Below, piece after piece: positions 13,939 to 61,358 of a stretch of 64,000 nucleotides of DNA. Source of the stretch: an uncultured Muribaculaceae bacterium (GTDB lineage: Bacteria; Pseudomonadota; Alphaproteobacteria; Rs-D84). The number at the start of each line of letters is the position of its first letter. Position 1 is the stretch's first letter. The notes beneath the pieces were generated by a model that made no database searches, was not told the origin of the DNA, and saw nothing but the letters and a program-made list of their open reading frames with translations. The DNA lies in the NCBI GenBank assembly GCA_964619545.1, contig CAZUED010000003.1, forward strand, positions 163-64,162. Direction: 5' to 3'. The position numbers and the translations under genes were made by a program.

Positions 13939-14005
13939 ATTCTCTCTTGAAGCAAGTTTATCATAAAATGCGAGGAAATGCAAGCCTCCCTTTAACAAGT
14001 GGAAG

Positions 14006-16300: not shown

Positions 16301-16321
16301 CGCAGACTCCTGAGCCTTTTA

Positions 16322-17797
16322 TTATTGAACTCTTACTACATTGCAAGCGGTCCCTTGGAACTTTGTCATTTTATCACAAAGCTTTTGTGCGCTTTCAATG
16401 TCCGACATGGGCCCAATACGCAGGCGATAAAGCCGCGCGGTTGCAGCGCCCGTACCCAGATCTCCAACTCCAGACTCGTCAACTGCGAAATAAACCATAT
16501 TACGATAAGGATTCAGCAGTCCTTGTCCATCATCACCACTGAATTTCGCCAGCAGCTTTGTCCAATAATCATTCAGTGCTTTGACAGAAGTATCGGATTT
16601 CAGCTCAACAGCGACACCTGCTTGATTAGAGGTTATAATTGGAATGTCGCTTTGCGGCAGGAACGAGCCCGCAGTATTGCGAACACTTGGCAGCATATTA
16701 ACGCCAGTCGCACCAGTTGATGCGCCATTTGTCGGCATTACCATCGGCGGTTGAAATCCATTAACCTGTTGGTCAGTGATTGGCTGCAACATTGCACCAG
16801 AATCAACCGGCATATTTCCATAACCAACATTTTGCAAGGATTGTGATGATTGCATGCTTTGCATAACGTTAGATTCAGCCAGTGCCATGACGCTGGAAGT
16901 GTCAGCAATCAAGAAGGGTTTTGCGCGACGCTTGATACAAACAATTCGCTGACCACTGCGCAATACCATATCCCCAACTGCTTCTACAATCAACAGGCGT
17001 CCGTTTTCACCATCAGTACGAAAACCGACTGGCGATTCACCACCTTCGACCAAGATAGAAACAACTGGTCTTTGAGTCATTGCGATAACCTTGTCGCCAA
17101 AATCAATATAGGTAAAGATTCTGTCGCGCCATACGCGTTCAGGCGCAATTACAAAGTCATCAGGATTCGGGACAAAAATGTCTAAATCAAAGCGGAACTC
17201 TGACGGATCAATTTTCATTGTTTTTATCCAGCCGTAATCTTCGCCGTCAACGCCCAAGGTAGAAGTTGAATTTTTCTTTGGGAAAATAGAGTTCATACCA
17301 GAAGTTTGACCAGCAGAAGAGCTGGTTGCATTTGGTATGCTAGAACGCCCATCCAGAACAACATCAACCTGGGAATAAGAAATTTCGCTGGAATTAGCAG
17401 GTTCGGAACGCAGATAGAATAAATATTTATTTCCTGATTTGCCAGTAATAATCAAATTTGTGTCGCTGCCCTGATTTGTTGCAACCGGTGTCATATAAAT
17501 TGTTCTGCCACCTTTTTGCGGATCCATTTGGAACAAACCTTCGTTACCAATGACGCCATCTTCGATAATTTCGCCTTCGGGCAAATTTATCATGGTTACC
17601 ATTCCATTACGCAAACGAATCGGAAGAACTGCGCCTGGCGCCCATGTCAGTTGGGCAAAGCCAGGTTTAGAACTGCCTGTGGCCATATTTGCCTCTGGGT
17701 TATCCCACGCATCCTGGACACCATAATCTTCGGCACTTGCCCCGCCAATACAAAAGGCAAAAATCAAAGGGCAAAGAGCAAATAATTTTATATTCAT
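16322..17797 (-). CDS. VirB9/TraK/CagX-like T4SS outer-membrane core protein, about twice the usual VirB9 size
   Basis: Signal peptide MNIKLFALCPLIFAFCIGGASA. N-terminal VirB9 signature GMVTMINLPEGEIIEDGVIGNEGLFQMDPQKGGRTIYMTPVATNQGSDTNLIITGKSGNKYLFYLRSEP (TNL...T...Y.F.L pattern). Confidence 0.75.
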   Translation of the reverse strand: MNIKLFALCPLIFAFCIGGASAEDYGVQDAWDNPEANMATGSSKPGFAQLTWAPGAVLPIRLRNGMVTMINLPEGEIIEDGVIGNEGLFQMDPQKGGRTIYMTPVATNQGSDTNLIITGKSGNKYLFYLRSEPANSSEISYSQVDVVLDGRSSIPNATSSSAGQTSGMNSIFPKKNSTSTLGVDGEDYGWIKTMKIDPSEFRFDLDIFVPNPDDFVIAPERVWRDRIFTYIDFGDKVIAMTQRPVVSILVEGGESPVGFRTDGENGRLLIVEAVGDMVLRSGQRIVCIKRRAKPFLIADTSSVMALAESNVMQSMQSSQSLQNVGYGNMPVDSGAMLQPITDQQVNGFQPPMVMPTNGASTGATGVNMLPSVRNTAGSFLPQSDIPIITSNQAGVAVELKSDTSVKALNDYWTKLLAKFSGDDGQGLLNPYRNMVYFAVDESGVGDLGTGAATARLYRLRIGPMSDIESAQKLCDKMTKFQGTACNVVRVQ

Positions 17798-45582: not shown

Positions 45583-46275
45583 GTGAGCGTCATGGATTTT
45601 CCGGCAGATTATGATACAAAGATGTTTCCGGAAACACGCTACCTTGGGATGGCGCGGGCTTTTGCGATTTGGTCCGCGATTTTGTTTTTATTAATTGCTG
45701 GACTTTCTTGGGCATTGGTTTGGACGATGCGTGCCAGCAGGGTAGAACCTGTTTTGGTTTCAATTTCTGCCGATGGTGCAACTTGGACGGCAGTATTGGA
45801 CGGAACAGGTCGCTTAAATTATTCTGTATCGCGCGCAATGCAAGAGGCAACAGTCGGAAAATTCACAAAACTTTGGTTCAGTATTTCGCGTGATGCAAAA
45901 GAAAATGAATCTAACTGGTGTCAATGCGAACAAACAAAATGTTGGGATGACGATGCGGCTGCGCCGCAGTGCAAAGTTTGTTGCGCTTCGGGCACCAGTT
46001 TATTTTCTAATTTCTTACAAGTTGTGAATGGTGACTTTCGTGAGCGGGCCGCGGCCGGCGAAGAATGGTCGATTGTTTCTGATTCGATTCGTGCAACACC
46101 TGTGGGTGAAATCTCTGACAATGGTGGATTATGGCGTGTTACTGCCAGTGTGAAAATGGGCGCGGGTCGGACGCAAAAGATAGAGGCGTTTGCACGTATC
46201 ATCAAAGCATCCGAAGGCTATCCATCAACAATGGGTTATTATGTCGCAGATTTTCATGCATATCCCGGGGAATAA
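45583..46275 (+). CDS. bitopic membrane protein with a Cys-cluster periplasmic domain (VirB8-like topology)
   Basis: Short cytoplasmic N-terminus, one TM (AFAIWSAILFLLIAGLSWALVW), a ~180-aa C-terminal domain and a CQCEQTKCWDD...CKVCC cluster. Confidence 0.5.
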   Translation: MSVMDFPADYDTKMFPETRYLGMARAFAIWSAILFLLIAGLSWALVWTMRASRVEPVLVSISADGATWTAVLDGTGRLNYSVSRAMQEATVGKFTKLWFSISRDAKENESNWCQCEQTKCWDDDAAAPQCKVCCASGTSLFSNFLQVVNGDFRERAAAGEEWSIVSDSIRATPVGEISDNGGLWRVTASVKMGAGRTQKIEAFARIIKASEGYPSTMGYYVADFHAYPGE

Positions 46276-48228: not shown

Positions 48229-48378
48229 ATGAAAAAAGCATTATTGTTGGGATTTGCAGTTTTAACATTGGCTGCTTGCACAGGTTCTTATAAATCTGGA
48301 AATTGCGAATATGATTTCTTGCTGCACAAAGACATCTCGATTTCCAAAGTAATTGGCAACGCAACAGGCGGCTGCTAA
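48229..48378 (+). CDS. small lipoprotein (49 aa)
   Basis: RBS aaggagaaaataaATG; MKKALLLGFAVLTLAACTG..., lipobox LAAC; followed by a terminator. Confidence 0.45.
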   Translation: MKKALLLGFAVLTLAACTGSYKSGNCEYDFLLHKDISISKVIGNATGGC

Positions 48379-48391
48379 AAATTAGAATAAA

Positions 48392-48422
48392 TAAAACGCG
48401 GCGGTTGCCGCGTTTTATTTTA
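48392..48422. terminator. bidirectional rho-independent terminator
   Basis: aaaacgcggcggttgccgcgttttatttt. Confidence 0.75.
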
Positions 48423-48519
48423 TCACTGCTGATTTTATCAAGGATAAGTCTTCTTTAATTCCGTCTATTTTTAATTGCAGCTGACCAATACCCGATTCCA
48501 GAATTGTTGTTCTGTTTTC

Positions 48520-48745
48520 CAGCGTGGTTATGCGGGCATCAGATTTTTTATTTTTTCCATCTCTTCGTTTGACAGCATAGATTGCATATCAAATGCAGCT
48601 GCAATAAAAGATTGTTCTTGAATATCGTATGGGTTGGAAGTTTTTTTGTCAGCCAATTTCTTTTCAACAACTGCTATCAATTCTTTTTTATGTTTTTCAA
48701 ACATCCGAGTGGCATTTATAGATTCTGCAACTTTTTTTCAATCAT
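48520..48745 (-). pseudogene. small minus-strand ORF interrupted at an A7/T7 homopolymer
   Basis: MPLVLTDD then a stop at tgattgaaaaaaag. The downstream frame continues KKVAESINATRMFEKHKKELIAVVEKKLADKK...NLMPA, so a 1-nt indel would fuse them. Confidence 0.3.
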
Positions 48746-48819
48746 CTGTAAGCACTAATGGCATAATTCATCCTTTGTAGTACAGGTCAATTATACTTTT
48801 AAATAATGAGTTTTCAATA

Positions 48820-49656
48820 TTAAATCCTAAACTCGGTTTTTGCCTGGACGGGACGCAAAGTTTGACCAAGTGGACGAACCGGGGCTGCGTTCAGGTCCAG
48901 CGCCCCAGCAATCGCGTCCAGACCGTCATCGTGCCCCGAATCGCCCATCGGCGTCCAACCCAGCATTTCAGACAGCAATGGAGTCGCCTGAATTCTTTGG
49001 TGGGCCCAAATACGACCCGTCGTCAGTAGTGGCTCTACCGCGTTCAGAATCCGAGATTCCTTGCGCGTGTGATTTATGATTTTTTGGATAACAACAGATT
49101 GGTCGTGTTTTTTTGCGACTTCGCGCAAAATCTCGGGCAAGGCGTTTCCCAGCCCATTTACTTCTATCCCGATTATATGCGCGCCATGTATTTTCATAAA
49201 TCCCAAAACTTTCTCGCACTGAGTCGCCAGTGGATGCAAATCATTGTCATCCACAATCAAGTACCGAACATCATGAATAAATGCGCGCCGATTTTTATCG
49301 TCTCGGTAAAGCAAGACACATACACTGGAATCGGCCCCTTTACGCCCGCCTGATGGATCCCAATAGCACGATACGCCCGTTATCAAAAATTCTTTATCAA
49401 TTCCCAGTTTCGCTGTGCGAGCATCAAACTCTCCGTCATAAAAATAAAGCGCGCCTGGATCCAGCCGCGCTTTATCTTCCGAAATATATTCCAGCATCAT
49501 TTGACTGGAAAAATGACGTGGTCCGACCGTTTCCCTTAATTCTTCTATTTTTTCCAGTGGAAAAATATCTGGCCATGCAGGTATGCCGCCAGAATCAATT
49601 ATCGGTAGGCGGAATAATTGGTATCCGCGTAAAAATGGCAAGGTCTGTTCATTCAT
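48820..49656 (-). CDS. phage terminase large subunit, C-terminal nuclease domain fragment
   Basis: RNase-H-like terminase nuclease pattern VSCYWDPSGGRKGADSSVCVLLYRDD...IHDVRYLIVDD...HIIGIEVNGLGNALPEILRE. Only 278 aa and no ATPase domain. Confidence 0.65.
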   Translation of the reverse strand: MNEQTLPFLRGYQLFRLPIIDSGGIPAWPDIFPLEKIEELRETVGPRHFSSQMMLEYISEDKARLDPGALYFYDGEFDARTAKLGIDKEFLITGVSCYWDPSGGRKGADSSVCVLLYRDDKNRRAFIHDVRYLIVDDNDLHPLATQCEKVLGFMKIHGAHIIGIEVNGLGNALPEILREVAKKHDQSVVIQKIINHTRKESRILNAVEPLLTTGRIWAHQRIQATPLLSEMLGWTPMGDSGHDDGLDAIAGALDLNAAPVRPLGQTLRPVQAKTEFRI

Positions 49657-49726: not shown

Positions 49727-51268
49727 TCAATCTAAAAATGGAACGTCAGCCATATCAGGCACTTCGGCATTACCATTGCTTGCGCTAGCAGGTGCAGAAT
49801 AAGATGGTTCTTCCGATTGATAACCTTCATCCAAATCATCAAACAAAGAATATTCCCCACTGAATTTCAGTTTAATCGTTTCTGGTTTTCCATGACGATT
49901 TTTACCGATAATCAATTCGGCCTTACCGCGTGATGCGTCCAGACGCTTGCGCCAATTGTCTGCCTTGTTGGTTGTAAATTTTTCGGAATGGTCACCGACA
50001 ACATCAGATGGATCGCGACCCTGCAAGTAATACTCTTCACGATAAGTGAACATAACAATGTCGGCATCTTGTTCAATAGACCCAGATTCGCGCAAGTCCG
50101 ACAGCAATGGTCGTTTGTCATCGCGTGATTCGACTGCGCGGGAAAGCTGAGACAGCGCGATAACCGGCGCATCCAATTCCTTGGCCAACATTTTCAGACC
50201 CCGGGTGATTTCTGATAATTCATTAACACGGCTGTCGTTTTTACGAAGAGTTGGTGACTGCATCAACTGCAAATAATCGATAACGATAAGTGCAATACCG
50301 CCATGCTTACGGGCAATACGGCGTGCGCGTGCGCGCATCATAGGGACACTCATCCCCGGGGTATCATCAACCAGCAAAGGAACATTAGATAGTGCATCAG
50401 AATACTGCGACATCCGCAGAAACTCTTGATCATTCAGGCTGCCGTTACGCATAGAACTGGATGGAATTTTCGCCTGGGACGACAGAACGCGAGCCGCCAG
50501 TTGAGATGCTGACATTTCAAGGCTGAAAAACACGACCGCGCCACGATACTTTTTATTTGCGCGATTTGCCATAATTGCGCTGGCCGCGTTAAAGGCAATA
50601 TTCATCGCAACCGTGGTCTTTCCCATAGCAGGACGACCAGCAATTATTACCAAATCAGACTTGTGCAATCCGCTGATAGATTTATCCAAATCACGCAGAC
50701 CTGTGGTCAGACCCGATAATTTTCCATCGGCCTTATAAGCAATTTCGGCTTCTTCTAATGCAACGCGAAGTGCCGCCCCCAGTGGAGATGCCCCGCGGTC
50801 GGACGATCCGGTGGTGGATAAATCAAACAGTTTTTGTTCGGCTATTTCTATTTGTCTGTCTACCGGATTGTCTAAATCTTCGACAAATGCCGAATCGGTA
50901 ATGTTTTGACCTATATTAATCAGGTGACGCCGCAAAGCATTATCATAAACTATTTTGGCATAGCTTTCTATATTTACAACAGATGCGCCGGCACTCGCCA
51001 GTTCTGACAAATACTCGACCCCGCCGACAGAATCAAGAACACCTTGTTGTGTCAGATAGTTTTTTGCCGTAATGATGTCAAATGGGATTCCGGCGGCGAA
51101 TTGCTTTTCGGCAAGTTTAAAAATCTCTTGGTGGGCGGGATGAGTAAAATGTTCAGAGTGTAAAAAATCGCTGACTTTTTCCAGTGCGCGGTTGTTCATC
51201 AAGACTGCTGCCAGCACGGCTTGCTCAGCTTCCAAATTAGTCGGTAAAGACTTGGGAGTAAAATCCAT
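49727..51268 (-). CDS. dnaB: replicative DNA helicase DnaB
   Basis: N-terminal DnaB domain (EAEQAVLAAVLMNNRALEKV); Walker A GRPAMGKTTVAMN; RecA-like core; acidic C-terminal tail. Confidence 0.9.
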   Translation of the reverse strand: MDFTPKSLPTNLEAEQAVLAAVLMNNRALEKVSDFLHSEHFTHPAHQEIFKLAEKQFAAGIPFDIITAKNYLTQQGVLDSVGGVEYLSELASAGASVVNIESYAKIVYDNALRRHLINIGQNITDSAFVEDLDNPVDRQIEIAEQKLFDLSTTGSSDRGASPLGAALRVALEEAEIAYKADGKLSGLTTGLRDLDKSISGLHKSDLVIIAGRPAMGKTTVAMNIAFNAASAIMANRANKKYRGAVVFFSLEMSASQLAARVLSSQAKIPSSSMRNGSLNDQEFLRMSQYSDALSNVPLLVDDTPGMSVPMMRARARRIARKHGGIALIVIDYLQLMQSPTLRKNDSRVNELSEITRGLKMLAKELDAPVIALSQLSRAVESRDDKRPLLSDLRESGSIEQDADIVMFTYREEYYLQGRDPSDVVGDHSEKFTTNKADNWRKRLDASRGKAELIIGKNRHGKPETIKLKFSGEYSLFDDLDEGYQSEEPSYSAPASASNGNAEVPDMADVPFLD

Positions 51269-52411: not shown

Positions 52412-53047
52412 ATGAGAGAACTGACTTCCATAATAGCGCAGCGCTTGTTGAACTTGTATCGCCAGGCTCATGTGATTGATGGCGGCTGGGCAGCTGTTAA
52501 TAAGGCATTGTTGGCCGAGGCAGATAATGAAGTTCTGGCCGATTTGCAAAAATTGCCGAACGGGGGAAAGTTGGTTCAGCATATAAAAAATTTGCAATCT
52601 GGAAAAACGGAAGTCAGCGGAATAGAACGCGAAGTTATACCATATGGTGGTAAGATGGACAGCGCGGTAAAGGCAACGCAAATTTCCAACAAGGATTTGA
52701 AAGAGTTAGAATCTGCGCTGGCAGAATTTCAATCAGACGAAGAACATATTGAAAAAATTAAAAATTTATCATTTGTTCAATCTTTTGGTGAAAAGTGGAT
52801 TTCCGGGGTTCGGTCATCATTATCTGGCAAGCCAGAGTTAGAGAAAAAATGGCTTGAAGTTTCCAGATCCGCACGGGCATATGATTTATGGAATAAAGCC
52901 TATGCCGTTTTAATTCCGCCAGTTTCGGACAGAGCACGTGCCGAGATTCAGGCAGAATTATCTGAATATGAAACTTATCTGCCGATGTTTGGCGAAGACG
53001 GAACGCAACTTTTATCGCGACTCCGCTCATTTGTAAGCAGTTTGTAA
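52412..53047 (+). CDS. hypothetical protein
   Basis: 211-aa ORF with no motif; followed by terminator aaaaaaacgcggtggttccccgcgtttttt. Confidence 0.45.
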   Translation: MRELTSIIAQRLLNLYRQAHVIDGGWAAVNKALLAEADNEVLADLQKLPNGGKLVQHIKNLQSGKTEVSGIEREVIPYGGKMDSAVKATQISNKDLKELESALAEFQSDEEHIEKIKNLSFVQSFGEKWISGVRSSLSGKPELEKKWLEVSRSARAYDLWNKAYAVLIPPVSDRARAEIQAELSEYETYLPMFGEDGTQLLSRLRSFVSSL

Positions 53048-53074: not shown

Positions 53075-53731
53075 TTAATTTTCAACCTTATAAATTGTGT
53101 CAACTGCATGTGGTGTGCCGATATAAATCATGGTGCCGCTAGGGGAAAGAATAAAGTCCAGTTCCCGCAGACGCATGCGTAACATTTCTCGTTTTTGAGA
53201 AGTATTGCTGGTGTTGGGAACTTCCACGTCATCGCAGATAATCATATCGGCGCGCTGACCTGTTATATTTCCATGAATACCTTGGCAGACTACAGAAGGT
53301 TCCCGAATTCCAACTTGGCGCGAGATTGTAATTTTATGCATTCCCCATTCTTTTTTAACGTTTGGCAATAAATCTCGGCATTCTGGATGATTTTCCAGAA
53401 TATGTTTTATATGTGACACCATTCTTGATGCCAGATTGGATTCTGCAGAAAGAATAAGTATACGTGTTTGTGGTCTTATAGAAAGTACCCATGCGGCGAA
53501 AATGCCAACAACTGATGATTTTCCTGAATGTCTAAATGCCAATAAAAGCGCCCGACGGGGCGGATTTTCAAGGCTGTTTACCAGAAATCTCAAAATGTTT
53601 TTATGATGTGTTGGTGTTTCCATTCCCAGTATCTGGTTCCATGCATCTAAAAAATTTTTCGCGGATTCATAAAGTTCCATAATCATCAATACTTTCACTG
53701 GGGCCTGTATCTGCCGGGGTTCCATAATCAT
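53075..53731 (-). CDS. phage terminase large subunit, N-terminal ATPase domain fragment
   Basis: Walker A-like RHSGKSSVVG; Walker B/catalytic ADMIICDDVE; coupling motif IYIGTPH. Only 218 aa and no nuclease domain. Confidence 0.65.
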   Translation of the reverse strand: MIMEPRQIQAPVKVLMIMELYESAKNFLDAWNQILGMETPTHHKNILRFLVNSLENPPRRALLLAFRHSGKSSVVGIFAAWVLSIRPQTRILILSAESNLASRMVSHIKHILENHPECRDLLPNVKKEWGMHKITISRQVGIREPSVVCQGIHGNITGQRADMIICDDVEVPNTSNTSQKREMLRMRLRELDFILSPSGTMIYIGTPHAVDTIYKVEN

Positions 53732-54215
53732 TTATCATTCGCGGCATGGCAGTACTCAGCACTGATAAAAGATTATTATAAAGCCCCAGTGCAGCGCCTC
53801 CACCAGTTTTATCTTCTATTAATTCTTTAATGACATCCATCTGATGCACGACATTGTCATGAATATTTTGCCACTGGGCAATACTGATTTCAACTGAGTT
53901 TAAATCTCGGAAAGCCTCTAGTATAAAATTAAAATCTGCGTTCAGGTTTTCGGGATCAATTTTTGCAGCTGGCTGATAATCGATAAAGCGGGATAGACTT
54001 ATCTTGCGAAATATATCTATACGAGAATTTTGCACGGGTGGATTTGCAAAAGAAATTATTCCACCAATCATATTCTCATCATATTGCAAATTATATTCAG
54101 TAGAATCCAAAATAACTTCATTGATTGCCACATGAACGTCTAATGGCTGAAAAAAAGGAAAAGCAAAGGCAAAGCAATATGCTTCGCCGTCACCGACATA
54201 AGAAATCTTGTACAT
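53667..54215 (-). CDS. T7 gp17-like tail-fibre N-terminal (tail-attachment) domain only
   Basis: KISYVGDGEAYCFAFAFPF...VHVAINEV...YNLQYDE...ISLSRFIDYQPAAKI...LNADFNFILEAFRD parallels T7 gp17 residues ~10-150 (YQLDGSNRDFNIPFEY...VVVTLIG...DYRF...LRRVTSTTDRLVDFTDGSIL...LNVAQIQTMHVAEEARD). No distal fibre. Confidence 0.5.
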   Translation of the reverse strand: MYKISYVGDGEAYCFAFAFPFFQPLDVHVAINEVILDSTEYNLQYDENMIGGIISFANPPVQNSRIDIFRKISLSRFIDYQPAAKIDPENLNADFNFILEAFRDLNSVEISIAQWQNIHDNVVHQMDVIKELIEDKTGGGAALGLYNNLLSVLSTAMPRMINDYGTPADTGPSESIDDYGTL

Positions 54216-54232
54216 TTTATAACCTTTGTTTG

Positions 54233-54580
54233 TCAGGCAATCAATCCATCCAGTCTGGAAATGAATGATTTCAACAGATTGGATTTTGGTGTTTTTATTT
54301 TATAAAGCTTGTCCAGATTGGATTTCTTTTTTTCATCAAATGGTTCTTCGGTTTCTTCACGCAGTCTTTTCAGAACAGCCTCTTCGGTCATTCCTTTATT
54401 TGTCATTCCTGCGCTGCCGTATTTTGCACGTTGTGCGGCTAATGTTTTTTTTACCAGATTGATTTTTGCTTTTTCATCCGCCGCAATTTTTTCTAAAATT
54501 CTTTTTCGTTCTGACACGTTTTCTTTTTTGTCTTGTTTTTGATTTAAGATGTCTGTGACATCTGATACAAGTTGTCCCAT
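54233..54580 (-). CDS. hypothetical Lys/Glu-rich protein in the phage module
   Basis: 115-aa charged ORF; no motif. Confidence 0.4.
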   Translation of the reverse strand: MGQLVSDVTDILNQKQDKKENVSERKRILEKIAADEKAKINLVKKTLAAQRAKYGSAGMTNKGMTEEAVLKRLREETEEPFDEKKKSNLDKLYKIKTPKSNLLKSFISRLDGLIA

Positions 54581-54590
54581 TTTTTTCTCC

Positions 54591-56315
54591 TTAGATTAAA
54601 TACCAGCCTTCTACTGATATGCCCAGTATGCTTACAGGTAATGGTTCGCTACCCGATATAGTCCAAAGAGGACAGGTAGTATCGTCAATTGTTCCCAATG
54701 AACCTACAGAAACATCTCCGCAGTATCCAGGCGAGTCTACACCAAGTGCATCATTTGGAAGTTGTGCACGAACTGCATTTATAAATAAAGATTTGGTATT
54801 CAGGCATCGTGCGGAAATTTTATGCACTCGAATTTTTTTCGGAGCTCGTCCACTGGCGAATAAAGGCATCGCAGCAGCCGTATGTGAAAATCCGAATTGA
54901 CCAGAATCAAGAGTTTCTGCTGCTGAAAATTTTTCTATGAATACGCCTGATTCGCGCGCGACTATTACAAATGTTTCACCATTCAGCACAGCGACAGATT
55001 TGAATGATCCCAGTGTTTTGTAGATGCCCCAGGCAGAAATTTCCAATGCCGAGTTTTTATTCAGTACTGCCATGGAACCATCTGTCATCACCACAAACAA
55101 CTGGCGTGTTTTATCATTATATGCCAGATCCACGGGATGCTTCATCAAGTGACCGGAAATCGCGCACAAGTTTGGTGCATTGTAGTTTTCACCTAACTCA
55201 TCCATAATCATTTCTCTGATTTCGTTGCCACCTTTGGAAACAAAAATAGTGCTGCGGTCTATCTTTTGTGGCTGCAGATAAATCGAAGAAATACTTCCTG
55301 CATTGGTATGTTGTCTGATGTCCATGGATGATGGAGTTAATGGTTTTGCGCTGATTGCCCATTCGCCTGCTGTGGTTAAAATTTGTAAATTATCGCTGGA
55401 TACAACCGTGCAAATTTGTTGGCGTGCAGATGAAAGCAGTGTCAGAAAAATGGCTTGGTCATCCAATCCTGTTTCAGCATTAAAGTTTTGATGATCACCA
55501 ACGCATGACATCCAAACCCCACATGGCCACGCGCGCGAACCCCCAAATACCAATCGGTCCTGATGAAAAGTGATGCTGCGTGGCCATCCGCGGCGGACAC
55601 CAAATGCGGCTTCGCGCCAATCAGAAATTGCCGCACTGGGCAGCGAGTAAGTTCCATTAGTGTATGCAACGATAGTGGTAGAATTTACATACTCGTAAAT
55701 GACCCATTGCTTACCCATCAAGTAAAGTCTGCCATTGAGATTTTCAGGTGTCCAAAAAGCGGCACTGGCAGTAAAAGTAGCATAGTTATTCCCATTCGCA
55801 TTACTTGATACAGAAATTTTTATACCAGCTGCATCGTCAAATTTCATAAATGGCATATTTCGTGACATATCATCGTTTGTTGAAAAATCAAATGTGGACA
55901 GATAAAACGCGCCACCTGTTTTTTTCAGAACTCGTGGCTGAAAATCCTGATGCACGAAAATCATGGTATCAAAACGTTGCGCATATTGCATGTTACACAA
56001 TGCATCCGCGCCCCAAGGCGAGATCAAGGCCTGGACCATATTCTGACCATCATAAATTTTCATCTGACCATCAGAAATAGCCAGCATATAATTTTCTGAA
56101 TCGGAAATAGAAAAAGGAATCAAAATTGCACCATTTTTTGTCGCAGCAATCCGAATTGTTCCATTCCGCCGTGAAATAGCCCCCGATGCCAAGACATCCA
56201 TATTTTCCATACGCGACAAGCCGCGGGATGAAACATCCAAATCACCACGCGCAAAAAATTCTGGCGATACTTCCCCCAATGCGAAAGAGTTCTGATTGTG
56301 AATAAATTTTCCCAT
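54591..56315 (-). CDS. T7 gp12-like tail tubular protein B (nozzle), shorter than T7 gp12
   Basis: N-terminus MGKFIHNQNSFALGEVSPEFFARGDLDVSSRGLSRMENM parallels T7 gp12 MALISQSIKNLKGGISQQPDILRYPDQGSRQVNGWSSETEGL. Position immediately after the gp11-like gene. Confidence 0.5.
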   Translation of the reverse strand: MGKFIHNQNSFALGEVSPEFFARGDLDVSSRGLSRMENMDVLASGAISRRNGTIRIAATKNGAILIPFSISDSENYMLAISDGQMKIYDGQNMVQALISPWGADALCNMQYAQRFDTMIFVHQDFQPRVLKKTGGAFYLSTFDFSTNDDMSRNMPFMKFDDAAGIKISVSSNANGNNYATFTASAAFWTPENLNGRLYLMGKQWVIYEYVNSTTIVAYTNGTYSLPSAAISDWREAAFGVRRGWPRSITFHQDRLVFGGSRAWPCGVWMSCVGDHQNFNAETGLDDQAIFLTLLSSARQQICTVVSSDNLQILTTAGEWAISAKPLTPSSMDIRQHTNAGSISSIYLQPQKIDRSTIFVSKGGNEIREMIMDELGENYNAPNLCAISGHLMKHPVDLAYNDKTRQLFVVMTDGSMAVLNKNSALEISAWGIYKTLGSFKSVAVLNGETFVIVARESGVFIEKFSAAETLDSGQFGFSHTAAAMPLFASGRAPKKIRVHKISARCLNTKSLFINAVRAQLPNDALGVDSPGYCGDVSVGSLGTIDDTTCPLWTISGSEPLPVSILGISVEGWYLI

Positions 56316-56842
56316 TAGAACCTCGTTGATATAAGTGAAAAGTCAGGTATGTCATTGCTGGGTGACACAGTGCTGTCTATGAATTTTGCCGCGCGCAGCT
56401 CGGATTCAAACAATGCTGCAATGGTGCGTAATAAATTCTGGTCGCCGGTCAATGGCATACAGAATTCCCGTGCAAGTTGCAATGCAGCGACATTTGAAAA
56501 ATATGAAGGATAATTTTCTGGTCCCATTCGCACAACAGCAGTGATTGAAATTTTATCGGCCGGTGCAGAAATTCTGTTCCCGCTAGTTTGATAAAGCAAG
56601 CAATCACAATCCAAAACACGAAGAATTTCTACTGGCAAAAGAAAATCACCATCTGTGGTCTTGCTTAAATTGAATTTTTTCTGGGCAAATTTCCACGGAT
56701 GCGACGCCAGCAAAGAATCAATCGTAGTATCAAATAGGGTCTTTGCGACTTTGGCTGCAGCACTATCGTCGTTAAAAGACTGAATGGGATTTTCACCAAT
56801 TTTCAATAAAGCAATAGAACACAGATCAATTTTAGTAAGCAT
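56315..56842 (-). CDS. T7 gp11-like tail tubular protein A (gatekeeper/adaptor)
   Basis: DLCSIALLKIGENPIQSFNDDSAAAKVAKTLFDTTIDSLLASHPWKFA parallels T7 gp11 [50 protein letters not shown]. Confidence 0.6.
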   Translation of the reverse strand: MLTKIDLCSIALLKIGENPIQSFNDDSAAAKVAKTLFDTTIDSLLASHPWKFAQKKFNLSKTTDGDFLLPVEILRVLDCDCLLYQTSGNRISAPADKISITAVVRMGPENYPSYFSNVAALQLAREFCMPLTGDQNLLRTIAALFESELRAAKFIDSTVSPSNDIPDFSLISTRF

Positions 56843-56865
56843 GGGGAACTCCTGACTTTTAACTT

Positions 56866-57150
56866 TTATGCCAAAGCACTGGTTGTTACATTCTGGGATG
56901 TGATGTTAATTTTTTTGATTACGGTGTTGTCGGAAGCATTGATAATTACAATGTCGCCAATATTCATCAAAGTGCGGACCGGATTAAAAAAACCAGTAGT
57001 ACTGATGGTCGCAATACTTTCTTGGGCGGCATAGTGCCACAGAGTAAATCCATTTGCATACGCAATAACGGACAAGTTTTTGTTTTGGAAATACATGAAA
57101 AACTCCATTGTTTGAGGGATGAAGGAGGAAGTTTGAGGTAAAAAAATCAA
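56866..57150 (-). CDS. hypothetical small protein between the capsid and tail-tube genes
   Basis: 94-aa ORF; no motif. Confidence 0.35.
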   Translation of the reverse strand: MIFLPQTSSFIPQTMEFFMYFQNKNLSVIAYANGFTLWHYAAQESIATISTTGFFNPVRTLMNIGDIVIINASDNTVIKKINITSQNVTTSALA

Positions 57151-57188
57151 TAAAACTAAAACCTAATCCTTCATCCCTCATTCTTTAA

Positions 57189-58004
57189 TTATTCGGCGCA
57201 ATTGATTTTGACGATCCCGTCCTGATCAATCAGCACGCTGCCCTGGGACATGCTGTTGCTGATAAAGTGCGCAGCGCGTTCGCCATTCCAAAAGATGTCA
57301 GATTTGACTTCTTGGCCACATGCATGACCGATAGCGGACGAGTGATACATAAAGCACTTACGCATATTGGTACCGGTTGGCAGGCCGTTATGCATAATCC
57401 AATTGATGCCCAACCACTTACGCAGTTCGAATCCACCAATCAAAGGTGTTTCGTTGCCGACGTATTCAGCCGAAACGAATTCATCCATAGACAAAAGCTC
57501 ATTCCACTGATGAACACCGACGACGCAGAATCTGCGACCATCGTCAGGAACGTCTTTAGAGTTCAATGCTTCGACCGCGGACAAAATAATTTCTTTGGTC
57601 AAAGCGGCAGTTCCATCTCCGACAGCGGTTGTTGCATTGGCCATAGATGTTATAATCAGCTCGTCAGTCTTGCGACCCAATGCATATGCACCTGCGCTTG
57701 CGACAACCCGACGTTCATCAATGTTGATTTTTAATTCATCCAAAGCATCAACCCAATCGCCCGCATAATAGTCCTGCAATACGCATTCAACAGGCTCGTG
57801 GTCCAAGTTCATGACAGGAACTAATCCGTGGCGAGATTTGGTAGTGGCAGTACCACGACCAACTTTTTGGAAAGTTGTACTGCTGCCTATAACGCCGGAT
57901 TTACTGCGTATTGTGTTGCGAAGCTTTGTCCCCATTTGTTGATAAGCAAGATGAACATCGGCCTCGAATTGTTTTACGAATATCTGGTCTATTGATTCAG
58001 ACAT
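57189..58004 (-). CDS. T7 gp10-like major capsid protein, short form
   Basis: FVKQFEADVHLAYQQ...FQKVGRGTA parallels T7 gp10 FLKVFGGEVLTAFAR...FPVLGRTQA. RKCFMYHSSAIGHA parallels IGLFMHRSAVGTV. Position after the scaffold-like gene. Confidence 0.55.
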   Translation of the reverse strand: MSESIDQIFVKQFEADVHLAYQQMGTKLRNTIRSKSGVIGSSTTFQKVGRGTATTKSRHGLVPVMNLDHEPVECVLQDYYAGDWVDALDELKINIDERRVVASAGAYALGRKTDELIITSMANATTAVGDGTAALTKEIILSAVEALNSKDVPDDGRRFCVVGVHQWNELLSMDEFVSAEYVGNETPLIGGFELRKWLGINWIMHNGLPTGTNMRKCFMYHSSAIGHACGQEVKSDIFWNGERAAHFISNSMSQGSVLIDQDGIVKINCAE

Positions 58005-58311
58005 AGTTTCTCCTTTTTGATTGAAAAAAACCGGACATTATTGTCCGGTCATAAATAATTTGTTTTTCAGGTTCCGCGCAAAAGCGCGCCGTAAAAACAA
58101 ATATGCGGGTTCGTCAGAATTGTATGTCTTTTTCTGATGCTATGTTTTGCCTTATTATATACCAATTGTCCTTAAATCCGTTTTAGTGGTAGTTGCGAGA
58201 AAACAGCACATTACAGCACTTCATAGGTTGTAATGGGGCATTTTAGCACTAGAAAAGCGGTAATAAAAAATCCCGCTTTGCGGGATTTTTTATTTCAATA
58301 ATGTAATTACA

Positions 58312-58764
58312 TTATTTCTTTTTAGCAACTGGCTTTTTCGCCGGGGCTTTCTTAGCAACAGGCTTTTTAGCAGCTGGTTTTTTCGCAGCTGGCTTTTTCG
58401 CCGGGGCTTTCTTAGCGACAGGCTTTTTGGCAACCGGCTTTTTAACCGCAACTTTCTTAGCAGCAGGTTTTTTAGCAGCAGGTTTTTTAGCAGCAGGTTT
58501 CTTTGCCATTGGCTTTTTAGCAACAGGTGCTTTTACTGCCAATTTCATAACTTTTTTTGCAGCTGGTTTTTTTGCTGGAGCTTTCTTAGCAACAGGCTTT
58601 TTAGCGGCAACTTTTTTTACAGCTGGTTTTTTTGCAACTGCTTTTTTCACAGCTGGTTTTTTAGCAGCAGGTTTTTTAGCAGCTGGTTTTTTTACAACGG
58701 GCTTTTTAGCAGCTGGTTTTGCAGTTGCTTTCTTTGCCGCTGGTTTCAAGAATGAAAATGCCAT
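58312..58764 (-). CDS. histone H1-like Lys/Ala/Pro-repeat DNA-binding protein (AKKPAAKK repeats)
   Basis: About 20 tandem KKPAAKK-type repeats across the whole protein, with a tandem DNA repeat underneath. Strong terminator downstream at ~58266-58292. Confidence 0.65.
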   Translation of the reverse strand: MAFSFLKPAAKKATAKPAAKKPVVKKPAAKKPAAKKPAVKKAVAKKPAVKKVAAKKPVAKKAPAKKPAAKKVMKLAVKAPVAKKPMAKKPAAKKPAAKKPAAKKVAVKKPVAKKPVAKKAPAKKPAAKKPAAKKPVAKKAPAKKPVAKKK

Positions 58765-58876
58765 TCTCTTCTCCTTCCTTTTTTTGTTTTTATAGAACAA
58801 AAAATTTTTGTTCTTGATTACATTTTATCTGAAACAAAAAAATTAGTAAAGCGAAAAGAAAAAAATTACATAAAAT

Positions 58877-59530
58877 TTATGAATATAATTTTTTGAAACC
58901 AGTTTCTATTTTACGAATATATTCTGAATCATGATCACGCCAATATTTTGGATCTTTCATCATGTTGCGTAATTCATTATCAGATAGTTTTTCTGATGCA
59001 TGATTTCCAGTTGCAACATCTGGTTCCATTGATTGCATCATTTTATAAATGCTTTGGATTCCCTGGGGTGTAGAGCACAATGACTCAAATGCATCAGATG
59101 GTAAAAACTTTTCACCGAATGCATTGATAGCCTGCATGGCATCTTTCATCTTTTCTTCGCTACCGAAAAAATTTTGTAATGTGGCGATTGATTCTGACTG
59201 GGCGCGCAAAGAGAAAATTTCTGACAATGCTGGGGATAAAAATTCTTCAGCTATCGAATAAATTTTTTCAACTTGCTTTGGAGTCAATCCTGCATCAAAA
59301 AATTTTTTGCGAATCGTTTCATCATCAAACATCGGATTTGATGGATATTCGTCAGCAGTCTTTGGAACCCCCAATGTGCGCATAAATTTTTCACGTGAAT
59401 TTTCGTCGGCATCTTCGCCTGGGATGGATACCATGGTCCCGATTTTCTTTTCCAGTTCGGAATAAGACTTAATCAAAGCATCGCTGTTTAATGTTCCATC
59501 ATCGTTTTGGAATTTTTCTGGAATTTGCAT
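58877..59530 (-). CDS. T7 gp9-like capsid scaffolding protein
   Basis: Acidic helical protein. C-terminus NELRNMMKDPKYWRDHDSEYIRKIETGF parallels the T7 gp9 C-terminus EMIKAMSDPRYRTDANYRRQVEQKV. Confidence 0.55.
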   Translation of the reverse strand: MQIPEKFQNDDGTLNSDALIKSYSELEKKIGTMVSIPGEDADENSREKFMRTLGVPKTADEYPSNPMFDDETIRKKFFDAGLTPKQVEKIYSIAEEFLSPALSEIFSLRAQSESIATLQNFFGSEEKMKDAMQAINAFGEKFLPSDAFESLCSTPQGIQSIYKMMQSMEPDVATGNHASEKLSDNELRNMMKDPKYWRDHDSEYIRKIETGFKKLYS

Positions 59531-59720
59531 TCTTTCCCCTTTGAGTTGATTTGCGTAAGAAATATATCCCCGCAAGAGTAAAAATTGAATTCATAGTCGT
59601 AAAAACATTTTCATCACCAACAAGATATGCCGTGATTGCGGATAAAATTCCAACGCCGGAAATTATGTAAGTCCGTTGTCCTGCAAAGAATCCGCCACTT
59701 AAAATTTTTGACATTCGCAT
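59499..59720 (-). CDS. small membrane protein, candidate holin
   Basis: 73 aa; two hydrophobic segments (GGFFAGQRTYIISGVGILSAITAYLV; IFTLAGIYFL) and a basic C-terminus. Immediately downstream of the lysin gene. Confidence 0.4.
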   Translation of the reverse strand: MRMSKILSGGFFAGQRTYIISGVGILSAITAYLVGDENVFTTMNSIFTLAGIYFLRKSTQRGKNANSRKIPKR

Positions 59721-59737
59721 AAAAAACTCCGTTCAGG

Positions 59738-60190
59738 TTATTTATAGAAAAGCAGCCCATCAATATCTGCAATACTTCCTTTATCTGTTGCCCAATCTGG
59801 CAAAATGTCTTCGCGATGAAATCGAACTGCGCTACGAACAGAATCAGGCAGTTTCCCATTAATCATTCTTTTTAAGACACGCAAACACATTTGGAATTTT
59901 GGGTCATCTTCGGAAATTAAAAGATCGCTGTGGCGGGAAGATTCTTTTTGCAAACATTCAAATAAAGATTCGTCCGCTGCAATACAAGAAAAAGGCTGCA
60001 TAGATTGTTGATAAATATTTCCAATCATAGACGCCATGGCTTCAACCGCTGGCAAACTTGACGTGCGCGTTTCGGCATAAATAATTTTTCCCAGTTGGAC
60101 AAGTATTGTTTTTTCATCCTGAAACTCATTACGAGGCATTGTTTGCATTCGGACTTCCTTTGTATAAGAAAGACCCGCGCAGCAATGCAC
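59738..60190 (-). CDS. SleB/CwlJ-family cell-wall hydrolase (phage-type lysin)
   Basis: LGKIIYAETRTSSLPAVEAMASMIGNI matches the Hydrolase_2 (SleB) signature. Confidence 0.55.
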   Translation of the reverse strand: MHCCAGLSYTKEVRMQTMPRNEFQDEKTILVQLGKIIYAETRTSSLPAVEAMASMIGNIYQQSMQPFSCIAADESLFECLQKESSRHSDLLISEDDPKFQMCLRVLKRMINGKLPDSVRSAVRFHREDILPDWATDKGSIADIDGLLFYK

Positions 60191-60292: not shown

Positions 60293-60976
60293 TTAAATGC
60301 TGATCTCGTCCCCATATGCCATTATGTATTCTTGTCCAGCGCGCAGCACCAATGCGCCATCATCATTCAGTCCGCATAAAACTGCCTGGCGTCCACGATA
60401 GGTAATAGTTTCGTTCAGATTTGCTGCCAAATCCATCCATCTATTTTTAACAATGACGAAGCCGCGAGATAACCAAATATCCATCTGTTTTGCCAAGGTT
60501 GCCAATAATTCGTCGCGAGAAATCTGGTTTGTATAATCTGAAACTTTAGTTGTTTGGTAATCAGCTCTTACACTGGGATTTGATTTAATGTTTATTCCAA
60601 TTCCGATTATTACAAATTCTTTGGCATATTCGATTAAAATCCCACTAATTTTTTTGCCATCTATTAAAATGTCATTAGGCCATTTTATTTGTGGCTGTAT
60701 ACCGAAAGAAATTAAAGTTTCTGCAACAGCAACGGCAACAGCGTATGAAAGTCTGGGCTCGCGATTTTCGATTTTATAAATAAAGCTGGCATACAGATTG
60801 CCATGATGAGAAACCCAAGTGCGACGATAGCGTCCGCGACCATTACTTTGTGAATCAGCTAAAATAATGGTGCGATCGGTTGCGTTTCCCAAACGAATCA
60901 AGTCCTGGGCATACGATTGAGTGCTGGGAATTTTATCAAAAGAGATAAGTTTATAATTTATATTTTCCACCTTCAT
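60293..60976 (-). CDS. birA: biotin--[acetyl-CoA-carboxylase] ligase, catalytic and C-terminal domains only
   Basis: GRGRYRRTWVSHHG and KWPNDILIDGKKISGILIE motifs. Confidence 0.85.
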   Translation of the reverse strand: MKVENINYKLISFDKIPSTQSYAQDLIRLGNATDRTIILADSQSNGRGRYRRTWVSHHGNLYASFIYKIENREPRLSYAVAVAVAETLISFGIQPQIKWPNDILIDGKKISGILIEYAKEFVIIGIGINIKSNPSVRADYQTTKVSDYTNQISRDELLATLAKQMDIWLSRGFVIVKNRWMDLAANLNETITYRGRQAVLCGLNDDGALVLRAGQEYIMAYGDEISI

Positions 60977-61358
60977 TTTTTATAAATTCTTTTCCAAAGA
61001 TTTTACGCAGCTGATAGATTGTCGTGCCCACCGCGTTTGTTGCGGCGCCTGGTGCATAGCCTAACTGCTGTTGCAGTTCACCGGCGTTTGCACCAAATGC
61101 GCCCGCGTGGTGCAGTGCAATAATTATTTTTTTCTGCGAACCTGAAAGAGTTGTAACACCGCAGATTTTTTTAATAATTGATACTTCGCGTGCATCACGC
61201 AGACGCAAAATTTCGGCTTTTAATTCAGCGGGAGAAAGTTTTTTATTTGCGGAAAAAATTACATCAGCAGATTCGCGTGCAGCAAACCCCGCGCCCAGGT
61301 CGGTCAGAATCCCGCGCCAAACCATATCATCAGTCCAAATCGTAATTCCATTAAACAC
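60951..61358 (-). CDS. hypothetical protein with a C-terminal winged-helix-like segment, overlapping the birA start
   Basis: 135-aa ORF; no confident family. Confidence 0.4.
   Translation of the reverse strand: MFNGITIWTDDMVWRGILTDLGAGFAARESADVIFSANKKLSPAELKAEILRLRDAREVSIIKKICGVTTLSGSQKKIIIALHHAGAFGANAGELQQQLGYAPGAATNAVGTTIYQLRKIFGKEFIKNEGGKYKL

Follow-up and report, generated by a model that had tools for sequence, protein, structure and literature searches.

Genes for the head and tail of a T7-type podovirus lie in the chromosome of a gut bacterium: are they the debris of a prophage, a phage that still moves, or a device that the host has kept? The question is raised by a stretch of 64,000 nucleotides of contig CAZUED010000003.1 (hereafter the window), in which positions 53075-60190 hold, in the list of its open reading frames (ORFs), eleven ORFs, all on the minus strand and co-directional. 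A preliminary description, made from the letters of the window, had regarded them as a degenerate module of an Autographivirus-type podovirus lacking portal, core and complete fibre genes, and had left the choice between a decaying remnant and a retained module resembling a gene transfer agent (GTA) or a tailocin. Profile searches of the module and comparison with more than 130 fetched loci from relatives lead us to favour, with moderate confidence, the following reading: the T7-type genes of the window are one copy of a domesticated podovirus element for morphogenesis and packaging that is vertically inherited, fixed beside birA in the order Rs-D84 and most likely GTA-like, and the copy in the genome at hand has recently been inactivated.

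In its complete form, as seen in relatives, the element is made up of a hydrolase, a holin-like protein, a scaffold, a protein rich in Lys, Ala and Pro (KAP-rich), the capsid, a small protein, gp11, gp12, a protein at the gp13 position and sometimes a fibre stub. These are followed by a large terminase (TerL) split into two halves that flank a 211-amino acid (aa) gene, a helix-turn-helix (HTH) regulator and dnaB, and by the portal, a second lysin that varies, Bbp19 and a coiled-coil protein with a membrane anchor. The element has neither integrase nor replication module, and it is also without a small terminase, a receptor-binding fibre and gp14-16 ejection proteins.

The T7-type module and its descent with the host

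The module and the host gene that borders it are arranged as follows:

60293..60976, minus strand: birA (biotin-protein ligase), host gene, conserved left border; TIGR00121, 154 bits against a cut-off of 83
59738..60190, minus strand: cell-wall hydrolase (Hydrolase_2/SleB-like), putative endolysin; PF07486 E 0.0025 (weak), phrog_938 endolysin E 4e-6
59499..59720, minus strand: holin-like membrane protein, 73 aa; two hydrophobic stretches and a basic C-terminus; about 59% identity, 82 loci
58877..59575, minus strand: scaffolding protein, T7 gp9-like; PF05396 (Phage_T7_Capsid) E 5e-9, phrog_3742 E 8e-15
58312..58800, minus strand: Lys/Ala/Pro-rich, histone H1-like basic protein, between scaffold and capsid; PF07382 (HC2) E 2e-21
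57189..58004, minus strand: major capsid protein (HK97 fold, T7/LME-1 type); PF19821 E 5e-69, phrog_3437 E 9e-73
56866..57150, minus strand: small head/tail-module protein (about 76 aa as called elsewhere); phrog_18004 E 8e-10; in 137 loci
56315..56842, minus strand: tail adaptor (tail tubular protein A, T7 gp11-like); PF17212 (Tube) E 7.6e-5, phrog_394 E 5e-33
54591..56315, minus strand: tail nozzle (tail tubular protein B, T7 gp12-like); phrog_376 E 9e-83, nozzle of 8ck1 E 6.5e-31
54233..54580, minus strand: 115-aa charged helical protein at the T7 gp13 position; conserved in 131 loci
53667..54215, minus strand: N-terminal anchor domain of a tail fibre or tailspike, 182 aa; orthologue profile against the PDB, 28lx and 8ck1, E 3.8e-8
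53075..53731, minus strand: large terminase, ATPase half (TerL-N), 218 aa; NF033889 (termin_lrg_T7), 226 bits against a cut-off of 150

The gp9-like scaffold, gp10-like capsid, gp11-like and gp12-like proteins, named at first from their letters, are confirmed as such by Pfam, PHROG and PDB profile searches. The solved structure closest to the capsid is 9eg4, the capsid protein of Legionella phage LME-1 (E 3e-26), whose capsid is T=7 (PMC12407071), and among the PDB matches at E <0.01 no chain is named T7 capsid protein. The gp11-like adaptor matches the connector/adaptor of the podophage tail complex 8ck1 (E 1.7e-8), and the nozzle has 574 aa against about 800 (818-830) for the nozzle chains matched. 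The capsid is full length in 137/137 loci (median identity 77.6%), the adaptor in 136/136, the nozzle in 131/136, with four of the remaining five cut by contig ends, and the scaffold in 82/84.

The 182-aa protein had been taken for the tail-binding N-domain of a fibre and nothing else, and the profile of its orthologues agrees: only the N-terminal particle-binding domain of podoviral tailspikes is matched, without a receptor-binding part, and the stub is homologous to the N-terminus of a 783-aa fibre in locus L150. It occurs in 82 loci, against 131 with the neighbouring 115-aa ORF, and about a third of the species are without it. As regards gp14-16, that 115-aa ORF stands alone between nozzle and stub, there being no large ORFs in the window or in complete relatives. 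Its product may be a small internal virion protein; hhalign gives a weak match (probability 38%, E 3e-4) to the 146-aa phrog_418 'internal virion protein' family of Acetobacteraceae. Profile searches of the PDB returned no match for this protein or for the 211-aa protein of the terminase region, and single-sequence AlphaFold2 models of the 211-aa protein (pLDDT 53) and of the stub (pLDDT 48) were too poor for use. The SleB-like assignment of the hydrolase stands, since the weak Pfam score is joined by clear homology to the Hydrolase_2 lysis gene that ends a Roseomonas element (blastp 6e-21). For the 73-aa holin-like protein, profile searches found no family match.

Searches also bear out that the 64-kb window is without a portal, gp14-16-sized core proteins, a complete fibre, a small terminase or polymerases. 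The Autographivirus label, in contrast, has to be dropped: an Autographivirus in the strict sense was rejected because the likeness to T7 is confined to the structural module, and a scan of the window ORFs with 130 aa or more, and of the flanks of relatives, found no single-subunit RNA polymerase or T7-type replication module. A tailocin-like reading of the module is not supported either, capsid, scaffold and terminase being all present and conserved.

The gene between scaffold and capsid has no counterpart in the T7 module. In the window it is a tandem repeat with a period of 15 nt and about 27 copies. An ORF fills the gap in 84/84 loci having both flanking genes, and in 81 of them the longest such ORF is 83-95% K+A+P+V; in the other three the scan chose an ORF in another frame, although in L166, which is among the three, a KAP-rich gene is called at this place. 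Conservation is seen at the N-terminus (MAF[STL]F), while the length ranges from 68 to 204 aa between species. The gene belongs to the head module of the Rs-D84 clade only and is found neither in Acetobacteraceae relatives nor in the outgroup locus L137.

Close homologues of the capsid number in the thousands, with identities of 71-92% for the best 120; they come from metagenome-assembled genomes (MAGs) that bear the names Alphaproteobacteria bacterium, Rickettsiales bacterium or Ca. Enterousia. The last belongs to the GTDB order Rs-D84, gut bacteria with genomes <1 Mb, and the paper describing them is silent on phage genes (PMC12306168). Three MAGs labelled 'uncultured Muribaculaceae bacterium' (L004, L005 and L072; CAYJAG01, CAZPLT01 and CAYJKO01) also carry the locus; in at least two of them dnaB is 87-94% identical to the replicative helicase gene of the window, and the bins are probably mislabelled. 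In IMG/VR, 384 relatives of the capsid are found, and most of the 80 contigs kept (L084-L135 among them) measure about 10-12 kb. Many of these contigs begin exactly at the capsid gene, and the dnaB of the host is included in most; the catalogue here counts chromosomal loci as viruses.

Locus order is constant over the fetched loci and runs 135-aa ORF, birA, hydrolase, holin-like gene, scaffold, KAP-rich gene, capsid, small ORF, gp11, gp12, 115-aa ORF, fibre stub where present, TerL-N, the block of 211-aa gene, HTH regulator and dnaB, and TerL-C, the nuclease half of the terminase; birA adjoins the module in 75 loci. The flanks of the loci examined contain no integrase or replication genes. Intactness of frames and the ratio of non-synonymous to synonymous divergence (dN/dS) across relatives had been proposed as a check. 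Gene order is identical in 106/106 loci spanning capsid to portal, and in 100 of these the ten core genes are all full length (coverage of at least 85%); of the six exceptions, four have a portal truncated by the end of the contig, so that two remain. Every module gene has a dN/dS of 0.00-0.18 in nine species pairs, with dS often saturated, the capsid lying at 0.00-0.08 and the module as a whole in the same range as DnaB, BirA and pyruvate phosphate dikinase. Mean pairwise identities are 0.85 for the capsid, 0.80 for the portal, 0.80 for DnaB and 0.66 for BirA, and those of capsid and DnaB are related with a rho of 0.72, which is a correlation of identities, not a comparison of trees. As judged from these sequences, the Rs-D84 element is vertically inherited with its host and under purifying selection. 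Intact genes, low dN/dS and co-divergence taken together, we count a neutral remnant and a recent horizontal spread as excluded for the family.

The split terminase and the lost portal

The element reaches down to about 48415, past the lower end of the range first described. In this part of the window are found:

52412..53047, plus strand: 211-aa conserved protein; 123 loci, about 47% identity, many invariant residues
51372..52388, plus strand: 338-aa regulator with two XRE-type HTH domains; HTH_3 E 2e-16, HTH_31 E 7e-16 (two stretches)
49727..51268, minus strand: dnaB, host replicative helicase; NF006606, 607 bits against a cut-off of 540
48820..49656, minus strand: large terminase, nuclease half (TerL-C), 278 aa; PF22530 (Terminase-T7_RNaseH-like) E 1.3e-7
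48553..48764, minus strand: remnant of a small ORF (120 aa in L174) that precedes the portal in relatives; stop at codon 9, 3' end deleted
48545..48552, no strand: deletion junction, A-rich microhomology; about 2.17 kb gone
48415..48549, minus strand: 3' remnant of the gene for an 81-aa membrane-anchor and coiled-coil protein that follows Bbp19 in relatives; C-terminal 44 aa

A large terminase had been placed at the end of the module, as in T7. Its T7 type is upheld by NF033889, but the ORF in question is the ATPase half only, and the nuclease half lies 3.4 kb further on, past dnaB, the two being separate genes with the 211-aa gene, the HTH regulator and dnaB between them. TerL-N covers positions 3-189 of the 500 of NF033889 and 270-458 of phrog_38, and conserves Walker A (AFRHSGKS), Walker B (IICDDVE) and the GTPH motif. 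TerL-C covers positions 323-500 of NF033889 and 481-710 of phrog_38 (E 5e-39), with the catalytic YWDPS, IEVNG and HDDGLDA conserved, three acidic nuclease motifs. Since the halves match complementary parts of one T7 terminase model and keep their motifs, they are regarded as a split terminase, and when they are aligned with intact terminases from relatives the break falls just past the GTPH motif. Between window and L004, TerL-C has a dS of 1.26 against about 0.6 in its neighbours, with a dN also about twofold higher, an excess of divergence that suggests a recombination event beside the deleted portal.

The helicase gene enclosed by the halves scores above the cut-off of the bacterial model, and the phage_DnaB model stays below its own cut-off on it; therefore it is a bona fide replicative helicase. 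In 115 loci it is found at this place, and an inversion relative to the module is confined to the clade of the window (5 loci, including L004, L005 and L168-L170, against 110). The 338-aa protein, conserved in 121 loci, is a candidate regulator of the element, as its two HTH domains suggest. The 211-aa protein had no match in Pfam, PHROGs or NCBIfam.

With a portal of the Acetobacteraceae elements as query, a portal gene was found directly after TerL-C in 101 loci of the Rs-D84 type. The protein has 410 aa, belongs to PF12236 (Head-tail_con), is 75-91% identical among the best matches listed and matches gp8 of T7 (6r21, E 4e-8). Downstream of it, relatives have a variable lysozyme, Bbp19 and a protein of 81-86 aa, which has an orthologue in 77 loci, 42 of them at a coverage of at least 90%; its copy in L168 begins with a hydrophobic segment, and the remainder was read by eye as a coiled coil. 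In the window, tblastn with an Acetobacteraceae portal as query (E up to 10) found no portal in the 64 kb, nor did PHROG and Pfam scans of the large unannotated ORFs. The reason is seen when the window is aligned with L174 by blastn: L174 5-1103 matches window 49638-48540, L174 3274-3576 matches window 48554-48253, and the intervening stretch of about 2.17 kb is deleted, and with it the portal, the gene for a 145-aa protein, Bbp19 and the 5' part of the gene for the 81-aa protein. The same gap is seen against L164 and L165, and an independent assembly of the species, L001, has the same structure as the window. The module was thus rightly described as lacking a portal, but the lack belongs to this copy, from which a 2.2-kb deletion has removed the gp8-type portal that relatives carry.

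Convergent with the remnant of the 81-aa gene, and adjacent to the gene in relatives as well, a DUF4223-type lipoprotein gene with the lipobox LAAC is found at 48230-48380 (plus strand); lipoprotein and 81-aa membrane protein could form a spanin-like pair.

Among Rs-D84-type loci with enough sequence past TerL-C, the portal is missing only in the species of the window; the outgroup L137 is likewise without a portal after TerL-C. In a relative-rate check against L004, relaxed selection was not seen in the remaining genes of the window, and this, together with the confinement of the loss to one species, makes the loss look recent. A locus 99.7% identical to the window, L003 (ERR15663783), has a further deletion of 3.3 kb that joins window position 57012 to 53696 and removes gp11, gp12, the 115-aa gene and the fibre stub; its TerL-N has in addition a gap of 1 nt. 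This suggests decay going on after the portal was lost. The copy of the window is a recently broken allele, apparently at the start of decay, and with its portal deleted it can make portal-less shells at most.

These lesions are what an ordinary decaying prophage remnant would offer, that is, a T7-like prophage integrated once and eroding neutrally, with surviving genes devoid of function. The deleted portal, the nonsense codon in the adjacent small ORF, the loss of gp11, gp12 and stub in a near-identical strain, and the non-synonymous nature of four of the five within-species differences in module genes (a tiny sample) all fit such an account. However, in more than 100 species the same genes are kept complete and in unchanged order, dN/dS remains at 0.00-0.18 where dS is saturated, conservation of the capsid exceeds that of DnaB, and genomes of <1 Mb (PMC12306168) would not be expected to hold 12-15 kb of neutral DNA. 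Hence, as an explanation of the element a remnant is improbable: with genes intact and constrained across the family, decay is confined to the species of the window and does not explain the element. The alternative posed at the outset is in this way resolved for the family in favour of a retained, selected, GTA-like module, decay being limited to the copy of this species and a tailocin-like nature being unsupported.

To the left of birA stands one more gene, whose membership of the element is uncertain:

60951..61358, minus strand: 135-aa ORF, overlapping the start of birA; left neighbour in every locus with upstream sequence

It was found in 73 loci with about 40% identity and had no Pfam, PHROG or NCBIfam match; its C-terminus looks, by eye, like an OmpR-type winged helix. 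The window is chromosomal: outside the element it has genes for 5S rRNA, three tRNAs, type IV secretion, BamA and pyruvate phosphate dikinase. Two further ORFs, of 1403 and 1374 aa, are by size and position probably rpoB and rpoC. The type IV secretion genes include VirB10/TrbI, VirB9/CagX and a weak VirB8-like match (ORFs 14006-17797, minus strand, and 45583-46275, plus strand). Three large ORFs, 451-2439, 2461-4704 and 11791-13998 (662, 747 and 735 aa), gave no meaningful Pfam or PHROG match (one marginal PHROG, E 0.009) and may encode lineage-specific surface or secretion proteins. Predicted promoter-like sites showed no excess over shuffled sequences, and terminator-like sites were about twice as frequent as expected.

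Related clusters, phages and gene transfer agents

Outside the lineage, Roseomonas, Siccirubricoccus, Humitalea and other Acetobacteraceae carry a compact T7-like cluster, about 12.5 kb long, that starts with an S24 repressor and three small genes. Portal, scaffold, capsid, gp11 and gp12 come next, then a 146-aa internal virion protein, a full fibre, a gene of about 100 aa, an intact TerL and small genes, followed in the Roseomonas locus by a Hydrolase_2 gene. The portal, upstream of the scaffold, has 466-580 aa, the fibre 760-787 aa, and no integrase or replication genes are found in these clusters. With the Rs-D84 element they share the capsid (55-56% identity), the portal (about 45%) and the scaffold, gp11, gp12, terminase and Hydrolase_2 families. 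They differ from it in placing the portal first, in having TerL as one intact gene, a full-length fibre, an S24 LexA-like repressor, the 146-aa internal virion protein and the gene of about 100 aa before TerL, and in lacking both the KAP-rich gene and an embedded dnaB. At the TerL position of Siccirubricoccus the sole ORF called has 307 aa, against 482 and 471 aa in the other two loci, and looks truncated. Locus L137 is intermediate, its TerL being already two adjacent ORFs without the dnaB block. The Acetobacteraceae clusters, apparently undescribed so far, may be a second GTA-like lineage, and their hosts are cultured (L171, Roseomonas sp. OT10, CP087719.1; L172; L173) and experimentally tractable.

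It is here that an active mobile element, such as a very small temperate podophage or a phage satellite that packages itself and spreads horizontally, has to be considered. The Acetobacteraceae relatives have a repressor of the S24 type. Between genera their capsids share 75-85% identity, and the genes on either side of the cluster change. A lone capsid homologue (62% identity) is found at 2744-3604 of L147, a 37.5-kb IMG/VR contig, amid NinG, endolysin and tail-fibre genes of another phage type, as if phages and the element family had exchanged genes; and many Rs-D84 copies are classed by IMG/VR as viral contigs. In Rs-D84, however, the locus lies always beside birA, without integrase or replication genes, an essential dnaB is embedded between the terminase halves, and the locus co-diverges with DnaB and BirA at saturated synonymous distance, so that we consider present mobility very improbable.

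Among isolated phages the nearest are podophages of Pelagibacter, 34-35 kb in size; to one of them, EXVC031P 'Hodr', the capsid is 46% and the nozzle 31% identical. Like the module of T7-type podoviruses, the element has a gp8-type portal (PF12236), a PF05396 scaffold, a PF19821 capsid of HK97 fold, gp11, gp12, a fibre anchor and a T7-type TerL, and it keeps the T7 order scaffold-capsid-gp11-gp12-...-fibre-terminase. T7-type phages have in addition RNA and DNA polymerases, the gp14-16 core, a small terminase and a receptor-binding fibre, with the portal ahead of the scaffold, whereas the element has the portal after the terminase, TerL split around the host dnaB and an added KAP-rich protein, is fixed in the chromosome and co-diverges with its host.

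With the GTAs of the RcGTA-like Rhodogtaviriformidae and of Bartonella (BaGTA) the element shares vertical inheritance in Alphaproteobacteria, purifying selection, a capsid that evolves more slowly than those of phages, and a cluster of phage origin that serves head, tail, packaging and lysis but has no genes for replication or integration. A cluster of this content, fixed in the host chromosome, is a feature of GTAs, and the Rs-D84 loci contain one. RcGTA-like clusters are kept in highly reduced endosymbiont genomes as well (PMC9254644). The ancestries differ: the particles of Bartonella grahamii have long non-contractile tails and BaGTA is of independent origin (PMC9662315), RcGTA and BaGTA being both siphovirus-like (BaGTA is set apart here by its description in the literature only), while the element descends independently from a T7-type podovirus. 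All Pfam, PHROG and NCBIfam matches of the module are T7-type or podoviral, none being to a family named for GTAs, and in NCBIfam the only model matched by module proteins was that of the T7-type terminase. FpGTA of Faecalibacterium prausnitzii (PMC12946183), compared by its description only, is likewise of the GTA type, in a gut bacterium and probably podovirus-like; it belongs to Firmicutes, occupies two loci and has been shown by experiment to package DNA, whereas the element is alphaproteobacterial, lies in one locus and has a split terminase. In the literature we found no description of a T7-like or podovirus GTA in Alphaproteobacteria, nor of phage elements in Enterousia, Rs-D84, Roseomonas or Acetobacteraceae.

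Possible function and significance

Taking the domesticated, GTA-like element as the favoured reading, we propose the following course for an intact copy. A subpopulation of cells would express the cluster. Scaffold, capsid and portal would form a procapsid, for which the analogy of LME-1 makes T=7 probable. The TerL-N and TerL-C polypeptides would associate and package DNA without sequence-specific recognition, such non-specific packaging being suggested by the absence of a small terminase, and the KAP-rich protein would condense the DNA. Gp11 and gp12 would then close the particle, and lysis would release it.

A domesticated particle might also serve something other than transfer: programmed lysis or release, a protein or nucleoprotein shell with the KAP-rich protein, or protection from related phages. 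Such a role would accord with the lack of a receptor-binding fibre and of ejection proteins, with the third of species that are without even the fibre stub, with the insertion of a clade-specific histone-like protein in the head module and with the two sets of lysis genes. Nevertheless, portal, adaptor, nozzle and both TerL halves, the latter with intact ATPase and nuclease motifs, are strongly conserved, and this is hard to explain without DNA packaging and tail building; we therefore hold a function unrelated to transfer to be unlikely.

Several points weigh against the GTA-like reading. (i) The GTA function is deduced from architecture and selection. (ii) The complete element is without a receptor-binding fibre or a gp14-16 ejectosome, so that it is unclear how DNA would enter a recipient. 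(iii) A T=7 head would hold about 30-40 kb, more than the locus of 12-15 kb, and the element may then not pass the classical test for a GTA, namely a head that cannot hold the genes encoding it. (iv) We know of no split large terminase that has been shown to work. (v) The placement of the window in Rs-D84 rests on similarity to named MAGs, not on phylogeny. (vi) The absence of relaxed selection in the genes left in the window would also fit a role independent of the portal.

In a wider and more tentative form, which we consider possible though doubtful, the Rs-D84 element, perhaps with the Acetobacteraceae clusters, would represent unrecognised, independently domesticated T7-type 'podo-GTAs', kept in genomes of <1 Mb because DNA exchange by particles offsets the cost of genome reduction, and marked by a two-polypeptide terminase around dnaB, a polycationic DNA-condensing head protein and the absence of fibres and ejectosome.

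For domesticated phage particles few origins independent of one another are known; RcGTA, BaGTA, the GTA of Brachyspira and, as a recent addition, FpGTA are among these. If our reading is true, the element adds to them an origin of T7 type, in a whole order of abundant uncultured gut bacteria in which its 12-15 kb amount to more than 1% of a genome of <1 Mb. The count of host loci as viral contigs by virus-prediction pipelines inflates catalogues of the gut virome. Two testable questions are raised: whether gut symbionts with reduced genomes use virus-like particles for DNA exchange, and whether a large terminase works as two separate polypeptides. The species of the window, in which the portal is deleted, constitutes a natural knockout, and its comparison with intact sister species could reveal the role that the element plays in these bacteria.

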